This document shows, one piece after another, positions 10,229-28,477 of a stretch of DNA of 64,000 bases. This DNA comes from Candidatus Pacearchaeota archaeon (GTDB taxonomy: Archaea; Nanobdellota; Nanobdellia; Pacearchaeales; GW2011-AR1). The notes below the pieces were generated by a model. It saw only the letters and a list, made by a program, of their open reading frames with translations. It did no database searches and was not told the origin of the DNA. Numbering within the stretch: the stretch's first letter is position 1; every line of letters begins with the position of its first letter. The DNA lies in NCBI GenBank assembly GCA_018303945.1, contig JAGVXD010000019.1:2975-66974 (forward strand). Direction: 5' to 3'. A program made the position numbers and the translations under genes.

Positions 10229-10381
10229 GATCCCGTAGCTCAGTTGGTTAGAGCGCTGCTCTGATATCAAAAAGTCCTTGCGTTTACCGCACCCTAAAGG
10301 GCGCGGTTTATTTGGGACTTTTGGCAGAAAAAATCAATGTCGGAAAGGCAGAGGTCCCAAGTTCAATTCTTGGCGGGATCA
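10229..10381 (+). tRNA. tRNA-Ile(GAU) with a 79-nt intron (10267..10345) at the canonical 37/38 position
   Basis: Hand-folded. Acceptor GATCCCG/CGGGATC, D arm GCTC/GAGC, anticodon stem CTGCT/GGCAG, loop CTGATA|A, T arm CCAAG-TTCAATT-CTTGG. Confidence 0.8.
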
Positions 10382-10864: not shown

Positions 10865-10887
10865 CTCTTCATTCATACCGCAGATAT

Positions 10888-10959
10888 GCGGCTTTAGTAT
10901 ATCGGTTAGTATGTGACCTTCCCAAGGTCGAGAGCGGGGTTCGATTCCCCGAAGCCGCA
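10888..10959 (+). tRNA. tRNA-Gly(CCC)
   Basis: Acceptor GCGGCTT/AAGCCGC, anticodon loop TTCCCAA, T arm CGGGG-TTCGATT-CCCCG. Confidence 0.9.
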
Positions 10960-10960
10960 T

Positions 10961-11034
10961 GGGGTTGTGGGGTAGCTTAGTCAGCCTTCGAGCCTCGGGT
11001 GCTCGCGACCCCGATGCGAATCCGGGCAATCCCA
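10961..11034 (+). tRNA. tRNA-Pro(CGG)
   Basis: Acceptor GGGGTTG/CAATCCC, anticodon stem CGAGC/GCTCG, loop CTCGGGT. As folded by hand the T arm has an A:C mismatch at 53:61. The gene starts 1 nt after tRNA-Gly. Confidence 0.75.
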
Positions 11035-11103
11035 CTTCTTGATTTCAAGGAACTTAACACTAAGCATCCAACAATTTAAAAATACCCTTAGCTATTTGTA
11101 TGT

Positions 11104-12521: not shown

Positions 12522-12647
12522 GGCTCCGTAGCTCAGCCCGGTTAGAGTACTGGACTCTTACATTTAAAGGCGTAAGTCTTAAATGGCTCATGATTGATAT
12601 ACAATCGAGAAATCCAGGTGTCGCGGGTTCAAATCCCGTCGGGGCCA
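12522..12647 (+). tRNA. tRNA-Lys(CUU) with a 51-nt intron (12561..12611)
   Basis: Acceptor GGCTCCG/CGGGGCC, anticodon stem CTGGA/TCCAG, loop CTCTTA|A, T arm GCGGG-TTCAAAT-CCCGT. Confidence 0.8.
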
Positions 12648-22995: not shown

Positions 22996-23335
22996 CTGCA
23001 GGACTAAAAGTTCCCCCCCTTTCTATTTTTTAGGATTTTTGAAAATTGAAACTAACATCGGCATTAAGAGAAGTTTTCCGAAGGAAAATTTGGGCAAAAT
23101 CCTGCAAGGATTTTCCTCTTAATCGCTGTTATGTCTGGGTGAGCGAAGCGAAAGGGTGCAACCCTTCCCCGAGGATTTTTTCAGCAGAAAAAACCGCAGA
23201 GTTGTGAGATGGCACTTGTATTAATTTTAAAGATGGCACTTCAGGACGGCGGGACGCTGTCCAAATAAATAAGAGCTGTGCGCGTCTTTTTTGCTTCTTT
23301 TTTTCTAAAAAAGAAGATGGGCACTTTTCCGTTTG
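22996..23335. repeat. structured element X (U1-related) with AGATGGCACTT direct repeats
   Basis: Shares AAGTT..CCGAAGG, CCTCTTAATCGCTGTT and GAGCGAAGCGAAAGG with U1. AGATGGCACTT occurs at 23207 and 23231. Confidence 0.65.
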
Positions 23336-23338
23336 TTT

Positions 23339-24349
23339 TTAAAAATCCCTCCATTCAATCCCTAAATCCATAAAGTCTATTTCTGCAAATCTATTAAGAT
23401 TTATTCTGCCTTTTCTTGTAAGATATTTAAAAATTTCCATTGTTTGAATGTTTGCTACTGCTCCCGCAATTGGTCCAAGGTTTCCTGTTTGTCTAATGTC
23501 TCTTATTTTTTCTAAATCTTTTAAGGGGTCCATTCTTTTCTGATATTCTATGAAATCATCAAAAGTTTTAGTAACTCCTGGAATGATGATTGGACCAACC
23601 ATCCCTAAGTGTAGATTATATCCTCCTGCAACACAATAAGCAACTCCATGCTGATTAGCATATCCATCAATTATTTTTGTTGTTTCTACAACTGAAGGAG
23701 AATCAGCGCAATTTACTAAAAAATTACAACCAGAAACAATCTCTTCGAGATTTTGATTTGCATCTACTCTTTTTGTGAATGTCTTAATATTTGCATCTTT
23801 TAATTTTTCTTTTACAACATCAACTTTATACTTGCCAACATCACCAGAATCAAAAAATAATTGCCTGTTAAAATTACTATCATCTACAACGTCAGGGTCA
23901 GTAATTCTTATTTCTCCCGCCCCAATTTGGTATAGCCCATTTACAATCCAAGTTCCAATTCCACCTACTCCAAAGACAGCAACTTTAGAGTTCTCTATTC
24001 TTTTTTGTAGCTCTAAGGTTTCTTCCCTTGAATCTGTAAGTTCGTCCAAAAATAACAATTGCTTGTAATGTCTTCCTTTTTCTAAATCAGATTCATATCT
24101 TCTAATTATCCCTTCTTTTTCTAAAGCATTTAAACAAGCATTTATGTCTTGAGAACTATATTTAGAAGATAATCTTTCAGTTAAATCTTGTTCTGTTTGC
24201 TCAGAATCAAGAGAAGCAATCACATCCTTAACTAAAGAATCTACTTGAAATTTTTTTATTCTTCGTGTTGCAGTTGAAATAAAAATATAATTATCTTCGG
24301 TGTCTCTCAAGATATACGATGAATCTTTGAGTTTTAATCTACTCTTCAT
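23339..24349 (-). CDS. E1-like adenylyltransferase (ThiF/MoeB/MccB family) with N-terminal PqqD/RRE-like peptide-binding domain
   Basis: Nucleotide-binding loop FGVGGIGTWIVNGL plus DPDVVDDSNFNRQ. The roughly 95-aa N-terminal segment fits the wHTH/RRE pattern. No CxxC zinc site is seen. Confidence 0.8.
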   Translation of the reverse strand: MKSRLKLKDSSYILRDTEDNYIFISTATRRIKKFQVDSLVKDVIASLDSEQTEQDLTERLSSKYSSQDINACLNALEKEGIIRRYESDLEKGRHYKQLLFLDELTDSREETLELQKRIENSKVAVFGVGGIGTWIVNGLYQIGAGEIRITDPDVVDDSNFNRQLFFDSGDVGKYKVDVVKEKLKDANIKTFTKRVDANQNLEEIVSGCNFLVNCADSPSVVETTKIIDGYANQHGVAYCVAGGYNLHLGMVGPIIIPGVTKTFDDFIEYQKRMDPLKDLEKIRDIRQTGNLGPIAGAVANIQTMEIFKYLTRKGRINLNRFAEIDFMDLGIEWRDF

Positions 24350-24917
24350 TTGAAATTATCTCGCCATATTTAATCTCGCTGTTGTTTGGTTCAAACAAAA
24401 CTCCTCCATTTTCATCCAATGGAGCGATAATCTTATAGTTTTTTAATTTTTTTCTTAATAAAGAATTTTCTCTCAAATGCCAGCAACCAAGAATAATGAC
24501 TAGGGGTCTTTTTGTTTTTGATTTATATTCTAAAATCTTTGAAAGATGAAGTTTCTCTCTTTCTTCAACTATTTTATTTAATCTTTCTTCATCTTCTTTT
24601 ATAAGTTCTTTTTGATTCTTTATTTTTCTTTGCAGATTTTCGTCAAATCCAAAATTATGAAAATCAATTCCAATTAGTTTAATCTTTTTTTCAAAACACA
24701 ATTTTATCAATTTTTCAACTTCATCAAAAGAAGTCATATCAGAAATAAACTTTTTCTCCAGAATTTCTTTAACCTTATCTTCCGTATCTAATTTTAAATT
24801 TTCTAATTCTTCACTTAATACAAATTCTGGTTTTACTGATTTTATTATTTCCTCTTGTTTTAAAAAATCATCTACAAAAGAATGAGTACTACCTATAAGA
24901 ATAAAAGAAAAATTCAT
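24339..24917 (-). CDS. TraB/PrgY/GumN/Tiki-superfamily protein (putative peptide-processing enzyme)
   Basis: N-terminal ILIGSTHS, then EFVLSEE, then C-terminal ILGCWHL, which match the GxxH..E..GxxH signature. The ATG at 24917 with a GGAG upstream is preferred over 24947. Confidence 0.55.
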   Translation of the reverse strand: MNFSFILIGSTHSFVDDFLKQEEIIKSVKPEFVLSEELENLKLDTEDKVKEILEKKFISDMTSFDEVEKLIKLCFEKKIKLIGIDFHNFGFDENLQRKIKNQKELIKEDEERLNKIVEEREKLHLSKILEYKSKTKRPLVIILGCWHLRENSLLRKKLKNYKIIAPLDENGGVLFEPNNSEIKYGEIISNEE

Positions 24918-24937
24918 TTTTCTACTCCAAAGACAGA

Positions 24938-25087
24938 TTACATCCAATATTTAATACTTGTTCCGCCGGCATAAACCTTGTCTTCTACTTTTCGAAGTCC
25001 TTCATAAAGTGGTTTCTCCGCAAGCAAAGGTCTTGCTTCTTCTGTCCTTATTTCAACTTTTTCCAAAGTTCTTTCAAGGGTTTCCAT
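24938..25087 (-). CDS. 49-aa peptide, candidate precursor/substrate (METLERTLEKVEIRTEEARPLLAEKPLYEGLRKVEDKVYAGGTSIKYWM)
   Basis: Not in the ORF track. It is the first gene of the three-gene unit, has a TATA-like box 23-31 nt upstream, and carries an internal Gly-Gly 7 residues from the C-terminus. Confidence 0.45.
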   Translation of the reverse strand: METLERTLEKVEIRTEEARPLLAEKPLYEGLRKVEDKVYAGGTSIKYWM

Positions 25088-25206: not shown

Positions 25207-25242
25207 ACATCTCCAATTTAGGGGACATCTCCAATTTAGGGG
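25207..25242. repeat. perfect tandem repeat 2 x 18 nt (ACATCTCCAATTTAGGGG)
   Basis: Read directly. It lies between DR-right and the recombinase gene. Confidence 0.8.
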
Positions 25243-25326: not shown

Positions 25327-25358
25327 TATGGTATCATGAATTAACTCATGATACCATA
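25327..25358. promoter_or_regulatory. 13-bp-arm palindrome TATGGTATCATGA-n6-TCATGATACCATA upstream of the recombinase gene (operator-like)
   Basis: Perfect inverted repeat about 55 nt upstream of the ATG at 25411. Confidence 0.45.
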
Positions 25359-25410: not shown

Positions 25411-26220
25411 ATGGATAAAGAAGAGGCATTAAGGAAGCTTGGGCAAGAGATTGAAATACGCAATTTTTCACGGAAAACTCTAAAGGGCTATGTTCATTCA
25501 GTAAGTAAGTTTTGCGATTATCTAAAAGACAAACCTTTTAGTCAGGAAGAGGTTAAGAATTATGTCCAAATGCAGATAAAAAAGCATAATCCCTCTTCTG
25601 TAGCTCACGAGATCTTTGCTATTCAATTTTTCTTTGATAAAGTCCTAGGCAGAAAAATTTATGTTCCAAGGCCAAAAAGAAACAAAACACTCCCAGATAT
25701 ATTAACAAGAGATGAAGCATTGGCATTGGTAAACGCGCCTGTGAACATAAAGCACAGATTGATACTAAAGCTACTCTATGGGTGTGGGCTAAGAGTCTCA
25801 GAGGTAATAAGCCTAAATAAAGACGATTTGAACTTCAATGAAAAGCTAATGCATGTCAGATTAGCAAAGGGTAAAAAAGATAGATTTGTCAGGATTCCAG
25901 ATTCAGTTACAAAAGAATTGGAAAATTACTGCAATTTATTAAATGAAGATGTCCTCTTCCCTTCAAACAGGGGCGGAAGACTGACAACTGCAACAATTCA
26001 GGCAATTGTTGAACAATCTGCTAAAAAGGCAGGTATCACAAAAGAGGTTTATCCTCATCTTTTAAGACATTCGTTTGCAACTCACTTACTAGAATCCGGC
26101 ACCGATTTACGAATAATCCAAAAATTGCTGGGACACTCAGATATAAAAACAACCCAGATTTACACTCGAATATCTCAAGCATCAATCAAAAATATAAAAA
26201 GTCCGCTTGATTCATCATAA
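25411..26220 (+). CDS. tyrosine recombinase, XerA/XerCD-like
   Basis: 269 aa with an N-terminal SAM-like domain, GCGLRVSEV, HLLRHSFATHLL, LGHSDIKTTQIYT, and the catalytic R, HxxR, H and Y. No IntI-type insertion is evident. Confidence 0.9.
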   Translation: MDKEEALRKLGQEIEIRNFSRKTLKGYVHSVSKFCDYLKDKPFSQEEVKNYVQMQIKKHNPSSVAHEIFAIQFFFDKVLGRKIYVPRPKRNKTLPDILTRDEALALVNAPVNIKHRLILKLLYGCGLRVSEVISLNKDDLNFNEKLMHVRLAKGKKDRFVRIPDSVTKELENYCNLLNEDVLFPSNRGGRLTTATIQAIVEQSAKKAGITKEVYPHLLRHSFATHLLESGTDLRIIQKLLGHSDIKTTQIYTRISQASIKNIKSPLDSS

Positions 26221-26221
26221 A

Positions 26222-28477
26222 ATGGCAACCGTAAAGGATTATATCCCTCTGGGAGATGTAAAAATAACGACTGAAAAGGAAGTTAGGCCAAAGCCGACCG
26301 TAGCAGAGCTCACCACAATAGAGTCTCCTGGAAAGCCGGTTCCTGCCTCTAATTTAGTGAAAAAAAGAACACTGGGTAAAAAAGCACCTGAAAAAGAAAA
26401 CAAGATAATTAAAGATTCTATATTGATAATTACAGAAAAACCACAGGCGGCGCAAAAAATAGCGCAGGCACTTGGCACCCCAATTAAACGCTTAGAAAAT
26501 GGAGTTCCTTATTACGAGCTTACAAGAAATGGAAAAATAATAACTGTAGCTTCCGCAGTAGGCCATTTATTCAATCTTACTTACAGCGCTGGACAGAAAG
26601 GCTGGCCAATTTTCAATCTAGAATGGCAACCGTCATATTCAAGAAAAACTGCGGCTTTCACAAAAAAATATTACGAAGTGCTTAAAAGACTCGTGCGTTC
26701 GGCTGAAACATTCATAGTTGCAACAGACTTTGATGTTGAAGGTGAAGTTATAGGATGGAACGTTGTGAGATTTATTGGTAAAAGAACTAATGCCCTGCGC
26801 ATGAAGTTTTCAACTCTCACAAATGATGAATTGGAAAATTCTTATGAAAATCCCATGTCGGAGCTTAATTGGGGCAACGCATATGCAGGAGAGACGCGTC
26901 ATTTTCTTGACTGGCTTTATGGTATCAATCTTTCCCGCGCTCTTATGTCAGCAATAAAGCAGACTGGCTCTTTTAAGGTTCTTTCAATAGGCAGAGTGCA
27001 GGGTCCGGCATTGAAAATAATAGCTGACAGAGAAAAAGAAATATCTGCGTTTAAGCCTGAGCCTTATTGGCAAATATTTGCGCTTGCAGAAAGCATTGAG
27101 TTCAAGCATCCAAAGGATATATTTGACAAATCGCTTCTTGAGCAGTTTAAAGACATAAAGGAAGCAAATGCCGAAACTGAAAAAAACAATGAGAATATCT
27201 CCCCGCCCGTTCCTTTTGACTTGACAACCTTGCAAAGAGAGGCTTATCGCCTTTTCAAGATGAATCCTTCTGAAACTTTAGCCACTACCCAAAAACTATA
27301 TCTTGAGGGAATTATATCCTATCCGCGAACTTCTTCTCAGAAGATTCCTGAAGCAATTCAGCCTAAAAAAATCTTGAAAGCTCTGGCAAAACACTTTCCA
27401 CAGGTAAAAGAAGCCACTAGAGAAAAACCTGTAGAAGGCAAAAAATCAGATCCTGCACATCCATCAATATATCCTACTGGAGAATATAGAAAATTAGTCG
27501 AAAAAGAAGAAAAAATATACAACCTTATAGTCCAGAGATTTATAGCTGCATTTTGTAAAGATGCTGTGGCGGCCAGAAAACACATCATCCTTACAGCGAA
27601 GAACGGCATTACTTTCACAGCAAACGCAACAACTCTGTCAGAAAAAGGATGGATGAAAGTTTATCCTTCATTTATTGAGGAAAGCTCTCTTCCTGACCTT
27701 AATGGTCTGGTTAAAATAGATGAAATTAAAAGTATTGAGAAAGAAACTCAGCCGCCTAATAGATACACTCCCGCCTCGCTCGTAGCAATTTTGGAAAAGA
27801 AAAACCTGGGAACAAAAGCAACACGTTCATCTATTATAGATACATTATTTAATCGTGGCTACTTAGACGGTACAAGCATCAAGGCAACACCTCTCGGAAT
27901 GCAGCTTATTTCTGCTCTTGAAAAATATTCTCCTATTATTATAGATGAAAACCTCACGAGAGAACTGGAAGAAGAATTGGAAAAAATTCAGGAGTCTAAA
28001 AAAGAATTCATGGAACAAGAGCAGAAAGTAATAAAGCATGCGCGGGAAATTATTACTAAAATTTCTGAAGAATTCAAGCAGAAAGAGAAAGAAATAGGAG
28101 AAGAGCTTCTGCAAGGACTTCAGACTCTCAGGCAGGAACAGAATGAATCAAATACTCTCCTTTCTTGTCCAACATGCAAAAAAGGCAACCTTAGGATACT
28201 CTATTCGAAGAAAACAAAGCGATATTTTGTAGCATGTTCTGCTTATCCAGATTGCAAGCAAACATATTCACTTCCCCCAAATGCTTTAATAAAAAAATCG
28301 GATAAACTATGCGAAGCAGACCAGTTCCCTAAACTTCTCGCAATTAGAAAAGGCAAGCGACCCTGGGAGTTCTGCTTCAATCCTAACTGCCCAATAGAAA
28401 AGAAAAAAAGAGAAGAATGGCAGGCACGCAAGGCATCTAATGAAAACCCTAACTCAAATCTGCTGGAAGAAGATTAA
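26222..28477 (+). CDS. topA: type IA DNA topoisomerase (archaeal Topo I/III-like) with C-terminal zinc ribbons
   Basis: Toprim motifs (ITEKPQAA, DFDVEGE), the active-site SYPRTSSQ, and C-terminal CPTC..CSAYPDC. Confidence 0.9.
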   Translation: MATVKDYIPLGDVKITTEKEVRPKPTVAELTTIESPGKPVPASNLVKKRTLGKKAPEKENKIIKDSILIITEKPQAAQKIAQALGTPIKRLENGVPYYELTRNGKIITVASAVGHLFNLTYSAGQKGWPIFNLEWQPSYSRKTAAFTKKYYEVLKRLVRSAETFIVATDFDVEGEVIGWNVVRFIGKRTNALRMKFSTLTNDELENSYENPMSELNWGNAYAGETRHFLDWLYGINLSRALMSAIKQTGSFKVLSIGRVQGPALKIIADREKEISAFKPEPYWQIFALAESIEFKHPKDIFDKSLLEQFKDIKEANAETEKNNENISPPVPFDLTTLQREAYRLFKMNPSETLATTQKLYLEGIISYPRTSSQKIPEAIQPKKILKALAKHFPQVKEATREKPVEGKKSDPAHPSIYPTGEYRKLVEKEEKIYNLIVQRFIAAFCKDAVAARKHIILTAKNGITFTANATTLSEKGWMKVYPSFIEESSLPDLNGLVKIDEIKSIEKETQPPNRYTPASLVAILEKKNLGTKATRSSIIDTLFNRGYLDGTSIKATPLGMQLISALEKYSPIIIDENLTRELEEELEKIQESKKEFMEQEQKVIKHAREIITKISEEFKQKEKEIGEELLQGLQTLRQEQNESNTLLSCPTCKKGNLRILYSKKTKRYFVACSAYPDCKQTYSLPPNALIKKSDKLCEADQFPKLLAIRKGKRPWEFCFNPNCPIEKKKREEWQARKASNENPNSNLLEED

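Follow-up and report, generated by a model that had tools for sequence, protein, structure and literature searches.

Here we describe three adjacent genes on the minus strand of a 64,000-nucleotide (nt) stretch of a Candidatus Pacearchaeota metagenome-assembled genome (contig JAGVXD010000019.1, positions 2,975 to 66,974; the whole stretch is referred to below as the window), which together resemble a modified-peptide pathway known from bacteria, in what would be its first archaeal form. The genes encode a peptide of 49 amino acids (aa), a 192-aa protein of the Tiki/TraB/ChaN superfamily, and a 336-aa protein in which an E1/ThiF-type adenylation domain follows an N-terminal domain resembling the recognition element (RRE) of pathways for peptides that are made on the ribosome and modified after translation (RiPPs). 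They lie head to tail (Table 1), as had been claimed in an earlier reading of this DNA made from the sequence alone (the original prediction), and all three open reading frames (ORFs) were found where that reading had placed them. The 192-aa ORF begins 20 nt past the peptide stop, and the start of the 336-aa ORF overlaps the stop of the 192-aa ORF by 11 nt.

Homologues back the ATG start of the 192-aa gene, the longest ORF call for which reaches a TTG at 24947. The peptide ORF had been described as unannotated; GenBank in fact lists it as hypothetical protein J4461_04015 (MBS3090010.1), next to J4461_04010 for the 192-aa protein and a “ThiF family adenylyltransferase” for the 336-aa protein. 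The TATA-like box claimed for the peptide gene is present, and such a box (TTTAAATA or TATATAAA) stands at an equal distance from the ATG in most of 40 related loci, a few of which carry GGAGG ahead of the peptide ATG in its place. No Rfam family matches inside or around the trio.

Table 1. Features of the three-gene locus, in positions of the window
Feature	Position	Strand	Description or evidence
Precursor-peptide gene	24938..25087	(-)	49 aa, METLERTLEKVEIRTEEARPLLAEKPLYEGLRKVEDKVYAGGTSIKYWM, then stop; C-terminal end KVYAGGTSIKYWM
192-aa Tiki/TraB/ChaN-superfamily gene	24339..24917	(-)	Putative leader peptidase; AF2 + Foldseek + conserved residues
336-aa RRE-ThiF-like adenylyltransferase gene (whole)	23339..24349	(-)	Pfam, AF2, Foldseek, homologues
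N-terminal ~100 residues of the 336-aa protein, RRE/peptide-clamp-like winged helix	24050..24349	(-)	AF2 + Foldseek
E1/ThiF-type adenylation domain, residues 113-329 of the 336-aa protein	23363..24013	(-)	Pfam ThiF
Codons of the C-terminal heptapeptide T-S-I-K-Y-W-M (putative core; Met before stop)	24941..24961	(-)	Conservation
Codons of the leader motif Y-x-G-L-x-x-[VI]-E-[DE]-x-x-Y (residues -22 to -11)	24971..25006	(-)	Putative RRE-recognition sequence
TATA box of the peptide gene, TATATAAA	25110..25117	(-)	30 nt 5' of the ATG
AF2, AlphaFold2.

The three genes occur together well beyond the window. The 336-aa protein has 480 database relatives, from the best 120 of which our figures for identity, length and taxonomy are taken: these are 61-99% identical to it, nearly all of 336 aa and, where named, from Pace-, Woese- or Nanoarchaeota (DPANN). 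When each GTDB species was represented by a single genome, 46 loci of the family were found, and across some 46 Woese- and Pacearchaeota species the three genes keep together within unrelated flanks. The contexts of the first three relatives already have the same trio in unrelated surroundings, one of them (65% identical) in the order peptide-ThiF-190 aa. In 44 of 47 non-redundant loci a gene for a protein of ~190 aa adjoins the ThiF gene, and most of the others end at a contig edge; a small ORF ending in ...YWM is found in every locus with enough upstream sequence, the degraded locus L034 excepted. A 49-aa ORF not conserved beside homologues of the two enzymes had been named in advance as one outcome that would refute the original prediction, which these loci therefore bear out on this point.

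Gene order varies among the loci, with at least four arrangements: besides peptide-192-ThiF we found peptide-ThiF-190 and peptide-[311 aa]-~215 aa-ThiF, together with a hydrolase gene on the opposite strand (L050) and divergent ThiF and hydrolase genes (L055). The association is far beyond chance, and because co-occurrence survives rearrangement it is strong evidence that the trio is a functional unit. Comparing all ORFs of 70 aa or more from the 47 loci with one another gave no recurrent fourth family beyond antisense shadow ORFs. One extra gene recurs in three loci only, a polyprenyl-synthase-like ORF of 311 aa. In L034 (L034:626-1251) the module is degraded, with a remnant ORF ending in ...KKYWM and a Tiki-like gene split into ORFs of 60 and 132 aa, reflecting either a pseudogene or an assembly error.

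The small ORF is a true gene. Forty distinct versions were taken from loci beside ThiF homologues (44-58 aa, median 49), and a profile search added 249 database clusters at E<=0.01; the 40 locus versions and the best 120 of these 249 clusters make up a set of 141 distinct peptides, all ending in YWM, to which the counts below refer, with positions numbered back from the C-terminal residue (-1). Within the C-terminal heptapeptide T-7, Y-3, W-2 and M-1 are each present in 141/141, S-6 in 136, I-5 in 134 (otherwise Val) and K-4 in 127 (Arg, Met or Gln in the rest), and the stop codon follows the Met directly in all 141. A variant tail, TSIRFWM, occurs beyond this set on 10 contigs. Further upstream stands a leader motif comprising Y-22 (141/141), G-20 (140/141), L-19 (128), E-15 (124), [DE]-14 (132) and Y-11 (121, with Phe and His also occurring), and this segment, from -22 to -11, stands at a constant distance from the C-terminus and is a putative ligand of the RRE.

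In the window peptide the invariant residues are Y28, T43, W48 and M49, with G30 and Y47 invariant in 33 aligned sequences and nearly so in the 141. An N-terminal motif, M-E-x-L-E, is also conserved; the segment between it and Y-22 varies in sequence and length, and the last 22 residues contain no insertion or deletion in any peptide. Codons at the invariant residues vary synonymously (TAT and TAC for Tyr, all four codons at G-20 and T-7, three at I-5), and selection therefore acts on the protein rather than on an RNA or DNA element. A 7-residue core had been guessed at originally, and the most strongly conserved block (T-7 to M-1) matches it exactly, which makes a boundary between leader and core near this point plausible. 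The Gly-Gly that had been taken as the key feature is not conserved: the window peptide has AGG directly before TSIKYWM and position -9 is Gly in 122/141, but at -8 the 141 peptides have Gly (66) and Pro (66) equally often, with Lys in 5, Tyr in 2, Arg in 1 and Ser in 1.

The 336-aa protein matches the Pfam ThiF family over residues 113-329 (E=1.3e-38), and the intact GxGxxG and D..D..N..RQ motifs on which its assignment to the ThiF/MoeB/MccB type had been based are conserved (FGVGGIGTW; D151/D153/N159/R162/Q163). The NCBIfam equivalogs (ThiF, MoeB, SAMP-E1, TcdA and others) all score far under their cut-offs, for example 89.6 against 275 bits, and the protein is therefore none of the housekeeping E1-like enzymes. 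A profile built from 34 homologues finds MccB (5e-27) and PaaA (5e-24) as its best matches in the PDB, ahead of ubiquitin E1, ThiF and MoeB, and the alignment with MccB begins at residue 63, within the N-domain. The ATP site is intact: GxGGxG, R162, K175 and D216 are invariant in the 34 homologues and align with their MccB equivalents, and the MccB alignment keeps RYSxQ, GxGGxG, D-x-D, NLNRQ, K175 and the Mg-binding Asp (ADSP vs ADHP). R162, K175 and D216 correspond to the Arg, Lys and Asp that are essential in EnfB (PMC12250964). The CxxC zinc motifs of MccB and ThiF are absent from the family in both the homologue and the MccB alignments, and no Cys occupies the position of ThiF Cys184, where the family has QTGNLGP instead.

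The AF2 model of this enzyme (predicted local distance difference test, pLDDT, 90.4) aligns in Foldseek over its full length with PaaA (5ff5; E 4e-22, template-modelling (TM) scores 0.74/0.77, 346 columns) and with MccB (TM ~0.72, ~345 columns). ThiF, MoeB and UBA5 align with the C-domain only (~250 columns), ThiF and MoeB being without the N-domain. The strands (E) and helices (H) modelled in the N-domain, E4-7, E11-15, E20-25, E31-35, H38-46, H53-60, H66-78 and E82-85, give a topology of four beta-strands, the last three of which match a PqqD-like RRE, followed by three helices and one more strand. The RRE-like N-terminus that had been proposed from the sequence is thereby matched at the level of the fold.

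On its predicted structure, the 192-aa protein is a minimal member of the Tiki/TraB/ChaN superfamily. Its AF2 model (pLDDT 91.7) has its best Foldseek matches all within that one superfamily, with moderate TM-scores: ChaN (2g5g; E 6.5e-3, probability 0.99, TM 0.54), HopBA1 (5t09; probability 0.99, TM 0.56) and RRSP (6a7h; probability 0.75), with PMT, BcR135/136 and EreC also among the top matches. A subfamily of ~220 aa passes the Pfam model TraB_PrgY_gumN (cut-off 26.8 bits) with 31.9 bits for protein P0400, which adjoins a family ThiF gene in L055, and 28.5 bits for P0392; the remote relatives P0470 and P0490 pass TraB or ChaN models. The membership in the TraB/PrgY/GumN/Tiki group that had been read from a GxxH..E..GxxH pattern is borne out by these structural matches and by the scores of the closer relatives. 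A sequence profile of the family found no match in the PDB, and an exhaustive profile search of 1.84 billion representatives returned just 144 relatives.

The family motifs are G9-S-T-H12, E36 and G144-C-W-H147, and T11, H12, E36, R120, H124, G144, W146 and R149 are invariant in 30 homologues; the His and Glu residues of these motifs are intact in the window protein, H12 and E36 answering to the catalytic His-Glu pair of Ere and Tiki enzymes. A catalytic set of two His, two Glu and an Arg has been defined for RRSP, a proven endopeptidase of the Tiki fold (PMC6254334), and the first of its two Glu (E-x-H) is present in the ~220-aa subfamily as ETHG. In graspetide loci, removal of the leader has been ascribed tentatively to Tiki/TraB peptidases (PMC8939145). 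Judging by its conserved residues the 192-aa protein probably retains hydrolase activity, and by analogy with these systems it may, though this is not assured, act as a peptidase.

The reading we favour, with moderate confidence, is that the trio forms a self-contained RiPP pathway of the bacterial RRE-ThiF type, in which the leader docks on the enzyme, the terminal Met is adenylated and captured, and the leader is trimmed. From the evidence above we infer the identity of the substrate, its adenylation at the C-terminus, the capturing nucleophile, where the leader is cut and in which order these events take place, as follows. The ~49-aa peptide would be made from its own promoter, and its Y-x-G-L...E-[DE]..Y segment would dock on the RRE of the 336-aa enzyme, probably across the dimer as in MccB and IndF, so that the fixed 22-residue spacing could place the tail, with its invariant ...Y-W-M, in the adenylation site, where ATP/Mg2+ would turn the carboxylate of the terminal Met into an acyl-adenylate; the free C-terminal Met conserved in every peptide speaks for adenylation at this carboxylate. 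The acyl-AMP would be captured by a nucleophile, most likely an intramolecular group of the heptapeptide, with an external amine as the alternative. Candidates are the hydroxyl of the invariant Thr-7, which would give a 7-residue macrolactone over exactly the conserved heptapeptide, the indole nitrogen of Trp-2 (an N-acylindole of the IndF type) and a backbone amide (as in EnfB). The 192-aa Tiki-family hydrolase would remove the leader, with the cut falling within the variable -10 to -8 stretch before Thr-7.

Three other sites of modification were considered and set aside. Lys-4 as the nucleophile, giving a lactam from Lys to the C-terminus, is rejected as a general solution by the Arg, Met or Gln found at -4 in 14 of the 141 peptides; a Tyr-3 phenol ester is weakened by the TSIRFWM variant; and PaaA-type chemistry on the E-[DE] pair at -15/-14 does not suit the several members with Ser, Lys, Thr, Arg or Gly there. 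The general idea of the original prediction, a RiPP-like pathway with an E1-like enzyme adenylating a peptide C-terminus, is the best supported of those we weighed, and the two Gly-Gly mechanisms attached to it are not supported (see below). The near-invariant core and the lack of a transporter point to one conserved product, similar to a signal or cofactor, rather than a diversifying antibiotic.

Several observations weigh against a RiPP pathway of this kind. No transporter, immunity gene or regulator recurs with the trio in the ORF comparison of the 47 loci, which sets it apart from most bacterial pathways of the type as regards transporter and immunity genes, and the high conservation of the 336-aa enzyme, 61-99% among the best 120 of its 480 relatives, is unusual for secondary metabolism. 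The RRE is seen by structure only, profile searches of the N-domain against Pfam, NCBIfam and the PDB giving at most weak winged-helix matches. For the 192-aa protein of the window the TraB_PrgY_gumN match is below the Pfam cut-off (E=0.019, 15.3 against 26.8 bits); in its subfamily the first Glu of the 2His/2Glu set is replaced by Ser10, H147 is kept in 28/30 homologues with Tyr in the other 2/30, and some members of the Tiki fold, such as ChaN and PMT, are not proteases or hydrolases (PMC6254334). As to the chemistry, Trp lies at -2 here against -4 in IndA and EnfA, so that a ring of the IndF type would have nine members and be strained, and neither Lys-4 nor Tyr-3 is strictly invariant, so that the choice of nucleophile stays wide.

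An E1-like enzyme, a small protein and a hydrolase are also the minimal parts list of a ubiquitin-like (Ubl) system, and the whole ~49-aa peptide might, in the manner of Ubl or Pup tags, be adenylated at its Met and joined to protein lysines or another amine, with the Tiki-like enzyme processing or de-conjugating it. The C-terminal tail of a Ubl is likewise its most conserved part, the high conservation and lack of a transporter would suit an intracellular role, and EnfB amidates an activated C-terminus with external amines (PMC12250964). We nevertheless hold tagging to be unlikely: the peptide ends in Met with no Gly-Gly terminus and has an internal GG in at most 66/141, its 44-58 aa with a variable middle are too short and too variable for a beta-grasp fold, neither the recurrent-ORF comparison of the loci nor PADLOC gave an E2-like or JAB-like partner, no Cys stands at the catalytic position of E1/ThiF, and the nearest structures are the RiPP enzymes MccB and PaaA, peptide clamp included, rather than Ubl-activating E1s. 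Some of the same features count against a sulfur carrier, in which the adenylated C-terminus would become a thiocarboxylate as in ThiS and MoaD. The place of the 336-aa enzyme within the ThiF/MoeB superfamily would agree with this; the NCBIfam ThiF, MoeB and SAMP-E1 scores far below their cut-offs and the lack of a GG terminus, a beta-grasp-sized carrier, a rhodanese domain and a Cys at the position of ThiF Cys184 leave it an almost negligible chance. The mechanisms first proposed for this locus had a double-glycine leader cleaved to release TSIKYWM, or a Gly-Gly exposed by proteolysis on a 42-aa carrier that would then be adenylated in a Ubl/Pup-like manner. The AGG of the window peptide, the frequent G-9 and a conservation that starts exactly at T-7 favour them, but the variation at -8, Pro being as common there as Gly, largely refutes both; no C39 peptidase or ABC transporter recurs with the trio in the 47 loci, and the carrier version would discard the seven most conserved residues and leave many carriers ending in G-P or G-K. 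We give them a very slim chance.

Two further explanations take the peptide as a participant in conflict or as a regulator. A conflict or defence module, with the E1-like enzyme and the hydrolase acting alongside a peptide that serves as toxin, antitoxin or decoy, would suit the variable contexts of the module, the HEPN/nucleotidyltransferase pairs, Fic gene and IS110-like transposase in the flanks of relatives, and a 192-aa gene whose GC content is below that of its surroundings; E1-like domains are moreover known in the CBASS Cap2 and 6A-MBL systems. The E1-E2 models of PADLOC, however, match the generic adenylation core only (E ~1e-11, against 1e-38 for ThiF) and find no E2 part, the 192-aa protein and the peptide match nothing in PADLOC, and RiPP enzymes are what the architecture and the nearest structures point to; we regard a defence role as decidedly unlikely, with the reservation that it does not exclude the favoured pathway, whose modified peptide could itself act in conflict. 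Fixed spacing of a conserved C-terminus is also what arrest peptides such as TnaC have, and the ORF might encode a regulatory nascent peptide, an arrest or leader peptide whose last 22 residues act in the ribosomal exit tunnel on downstream translation. The spacing of the invariant residues from the stop codon is indeed constant, the last 22 residues being free of indels, and the stop is 1-21 nt ahead of the next start in most loci (~20 nt in the closest relatives of the window). Against this, the gene that follows lies on the other strand in L050, is ThiF instead of the hydrolase in L001 and is a different gene in L012, L043 and L046, and what is constant is co-occurrence rather than a given downstream start; the N-terminal M-E-x-L-E motif, outside the exit tunnel, is conserved too, and the enzyme's modelled peptide-binding domain would need a peptide ligand. 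The chance of this explanation appears slim.

A more far-reaching form of the RiPP reading, which we offer tentatively and consider rather doubtful, is that the trio represents the first archaeal family of ThiF-type RiPPs, limited to the Woese- and Pacearchaeota and conserved among them, making a single, near-invariant small product from ...TSIKYWM by chemistry unseen in ThiF enzymes at the Met carboxylate and using the first leader peptidase of the Tiki family. If this were true, new chemistry would be expected, for example a macrolactone from Thr to the C-terminus or an N-acyl link to Trp at i+1 spacing, and the product could be a molecule similar to a signal or cofactor in a symbiont-host relationship rather than an antibiotic, an idea based on the small genomes of these episymbionts and on the absence of a transporter or immunity gene with the trio. 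A ComQ-like prenyltransferase may in that case further modify the product in some lineages.

The surroundings of the trio bear on its mobility. The original prediction had placed it in a putatively mobile cassette, which the evidence hints at faintly. In favour are the GC content of the 192-aa gene (24400-25000), which is ~25% against ~37% for the flanks and ~35-40% in the surrounding genes and may reflect either a Lys/Glu/Ile/Asn-rich composition or a foreign origin, and the flanks of the trio, which differ in every relative. Against it, no direct repeats flanking the trio were found in the window, and a tyrosine recombinase lies beside the trio here and in no other locus of the 47-locus ORF comparison. 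This recombinase gene (25411-26220; Phage_integrase with a SAM-like N-domain) shares 14 nt with the beginning of a topoisomerase IA gene (26207-28477), and the two suggest housekeeping genes that are co-transcribed more than they do a mobile element with its integrase. The module tends to be an accessory unit in variable, island-like regions.

Among the neighbours of the trio in relatives are toxin-antitoxin pairs of the HEPN/nucleotidyltransferase kind, a gene with a Fic domain and an IS110-like transposase (L003:388-1079, L003:6008-7031, L005:1721-2659, L012:86-1078). One Pacearchaeota relative carries a YcaO-domain gene and a nitroreductase-family gene ~4 kb from its trio (L005:10462-11011), which may be a second, unrelated peptide-modification locus. 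Between the recombinase and peptide genes of the window lies a perfect tandem duplication of the 18-nt unit ACATCTCCAATTTAGGGG (25207-25242), which occurs nowhere else in the window or in 53 other loci examined. A 32-nt palindrome (TATGGTATCATGAATT / AACTCATGATACCATA, 94% complementary; 25327-25358), ~55 nt upstream of the recombinase ATG and not conserved in the other loci examined, may serve as an operator, as a terminator or as a site for the recombinase. An 11-nt direct repeat, AGATGGCACTT (two copies, 24 nt apart; 23207-23241), follows the ThiF gene closely on its downstream side, and the region from ~23100 to 23330 is somewhat GC-richer and has no Rfam match. Elsewhere in the window, two Rfam tRNA matches uncalled by ARAGORN, of 153 nt (10229-10381) and 126 nt (12522-12647), are probably intron-containing archaeal tRNA genes, and tRNA-Gly(CCC) and tRNA-Pro(CGG) are directly adjacent at 10887-11035.

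The original prediction knew of no description of the trio, and in the open-access literature we found no ThiF-type RiPP pathway in archaea or DPANN and no pairing of Tiki and ThiF proteins, which is not proof of absence. The global mining in the IndF study covered bacterial RefSeq only (PMC12150305), an archaeal RiPP survey (PMC12144867) does not mention a ThiF-type pathway, and no archaeal one is mentioned in the accessible text of two ThiF reviews, the word “archaea” being absent from that of the ChemBioChem review. The characterised RRE-ThiF enzymes (MccB, PaaA, GrcB, EnfB and IndF) are so far bacterial only. What is new here is an archaeal, DPANN-restricted and probable RRE-ThiF peptide-modification trio with a near-invariant TSIKYWM tail and a Tiki-type partner.

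RRE-ThiF enzymes are a growing source of peptide chemistry, including phosphoramidate, thiolactone, imide and indolylamide products, and three small genes with a near-invariant heptapeptide tail make the chemistry of the present system directly testable. If the favoured pathway is right, a prokaryotic Tiki/TraB protein would gain a defined peptide substrate in a family whose function is still largely inferred. The module is kept in small-genome DPANN archaea whose host interactions are poorly understood, and a conserved modified peptide, secreted or intracellular, would be a concrete lead to them.

Among known systems, the 311-aa gene of three relatives recalls the ComQ/ComX pair of Bacillus. 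ComQ, which is homologous to polyprenyl synthases, attaches a prenyl group to a Trp close to the ComX C-terminus. In L012:1420-2355, L043:1435-2373 and L046:1456-2391 the 311-aa gene lies between the peptide gene, whose 3' end it overlaps, and divergent Tiki-like genes of ~215 aa; its protein has the motifs YDxxxDxHxxxxGxPT and (D/E)DLID. The homology is weak, polyprenyl-synthase matches in Pfam (E=2e-4) being below the cut-off and FPPS/OPPS matches in the PDB at E ~0.2-0.4, and the gene is absent from the window. With the Tiki/TraB/PrgY/GumN-ChaN-erythromycin-esterase-RRSP superfamily, among whose members are a protease that trims Wnt, proteins of enterococcal pheromone control and RRSP, the endopeptidase of Ras, the 192-aa protein shares the alpha/beta fold built on a parallel sheet, a GxxH following strand 1 and a Glu following strand 2, as well as a further GxxH and a conserved Arg. 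It differs in being about the smallest member, in having Ser for the first Glu and in scoring below the Pfam cut-off, and no characterised member partnered with a ThiF-like enzyme was found in the literature.

The closest solved structures are those of MccB and PaaA, which act on the precursors MccA (microcin C) and PaaP (pantocin A) and align over the full length of the 336-aa enzyme, clamp or RRE included. Sequence identity to them is 18-24%, and the CxxC zinc site of MccB is absent from the 336-aa enzyme. MccB makes a phosphoramidate on the C-terminal Asn, PaaA cyclises Glu-Glu and the product of GrcB is a thiolactone (PMC12250964, PMC12150305, PMC12596934); the MccA heptapeptide has to end in Asn, the residue that forms the succinimide and the N-P bond, against a ~49-aa peptide that ends in Met in 141/141, PaaA acts on an internal Glu-Glu, and the accessory genes of the MccB and PaaA clusters are absent from the trio. 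GrcB, EnfB and IndF, each an RRE with ThiF, adenylate the C-terminal carboxylate of their precursors, which is then captured intramolecularly (PMC12250964, PMC12150305), and EnfB modifies a WWIVI tail to an imide, or to an amide with external amines (PMC12250964). EnfB/EnfA (enterofaecin) and GrcB/GrcA share with the trio the RRE and ThiF parts and the Arg, Lys and Asp of the ATP site; they differ in their precursors (a WWIVI tail and a Glu...Cys tail) and nucleophiles, GrcB works beside radical S-adenosylmethionine enzymes, and their loci are from Bacillota, linked to quorum sensing and equipped with transporters.

The trio may also be viewed beside the ind cluster of Streptococcus pneumoniae, which consists of a precursor, a ThiF enzyme, an M16 peptidase and a transporter, and in which the indole nitrogen of Trp in the core EDTTNWYFI attacks the adenylated terminal Ile (PMC12150305). 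The ind system is bacterial, with Trp at -4, a terminal Ile, an M16 peptidase and a transporter, against an archaeal TSIKYWM tail with Trp at -2, a terminal Met and a Tiki-type partner; with Trp at -2, K/R/M/Q at -4 and no M16 gene nearby in the 47 loci, the trio does not have the marks of an indolylamide pathway. Common to IndF/IndA/IndP and the trio are a minimal precursor, an RRE-fused ThiF-like enzyme with a fold near those of PaaA and MccB, and a peptidase or putative peptidase. In the ind system it is the extreme C-terminus of the precursor that is modified, and both tails are conserved, aromatic-rich and contain Trp.

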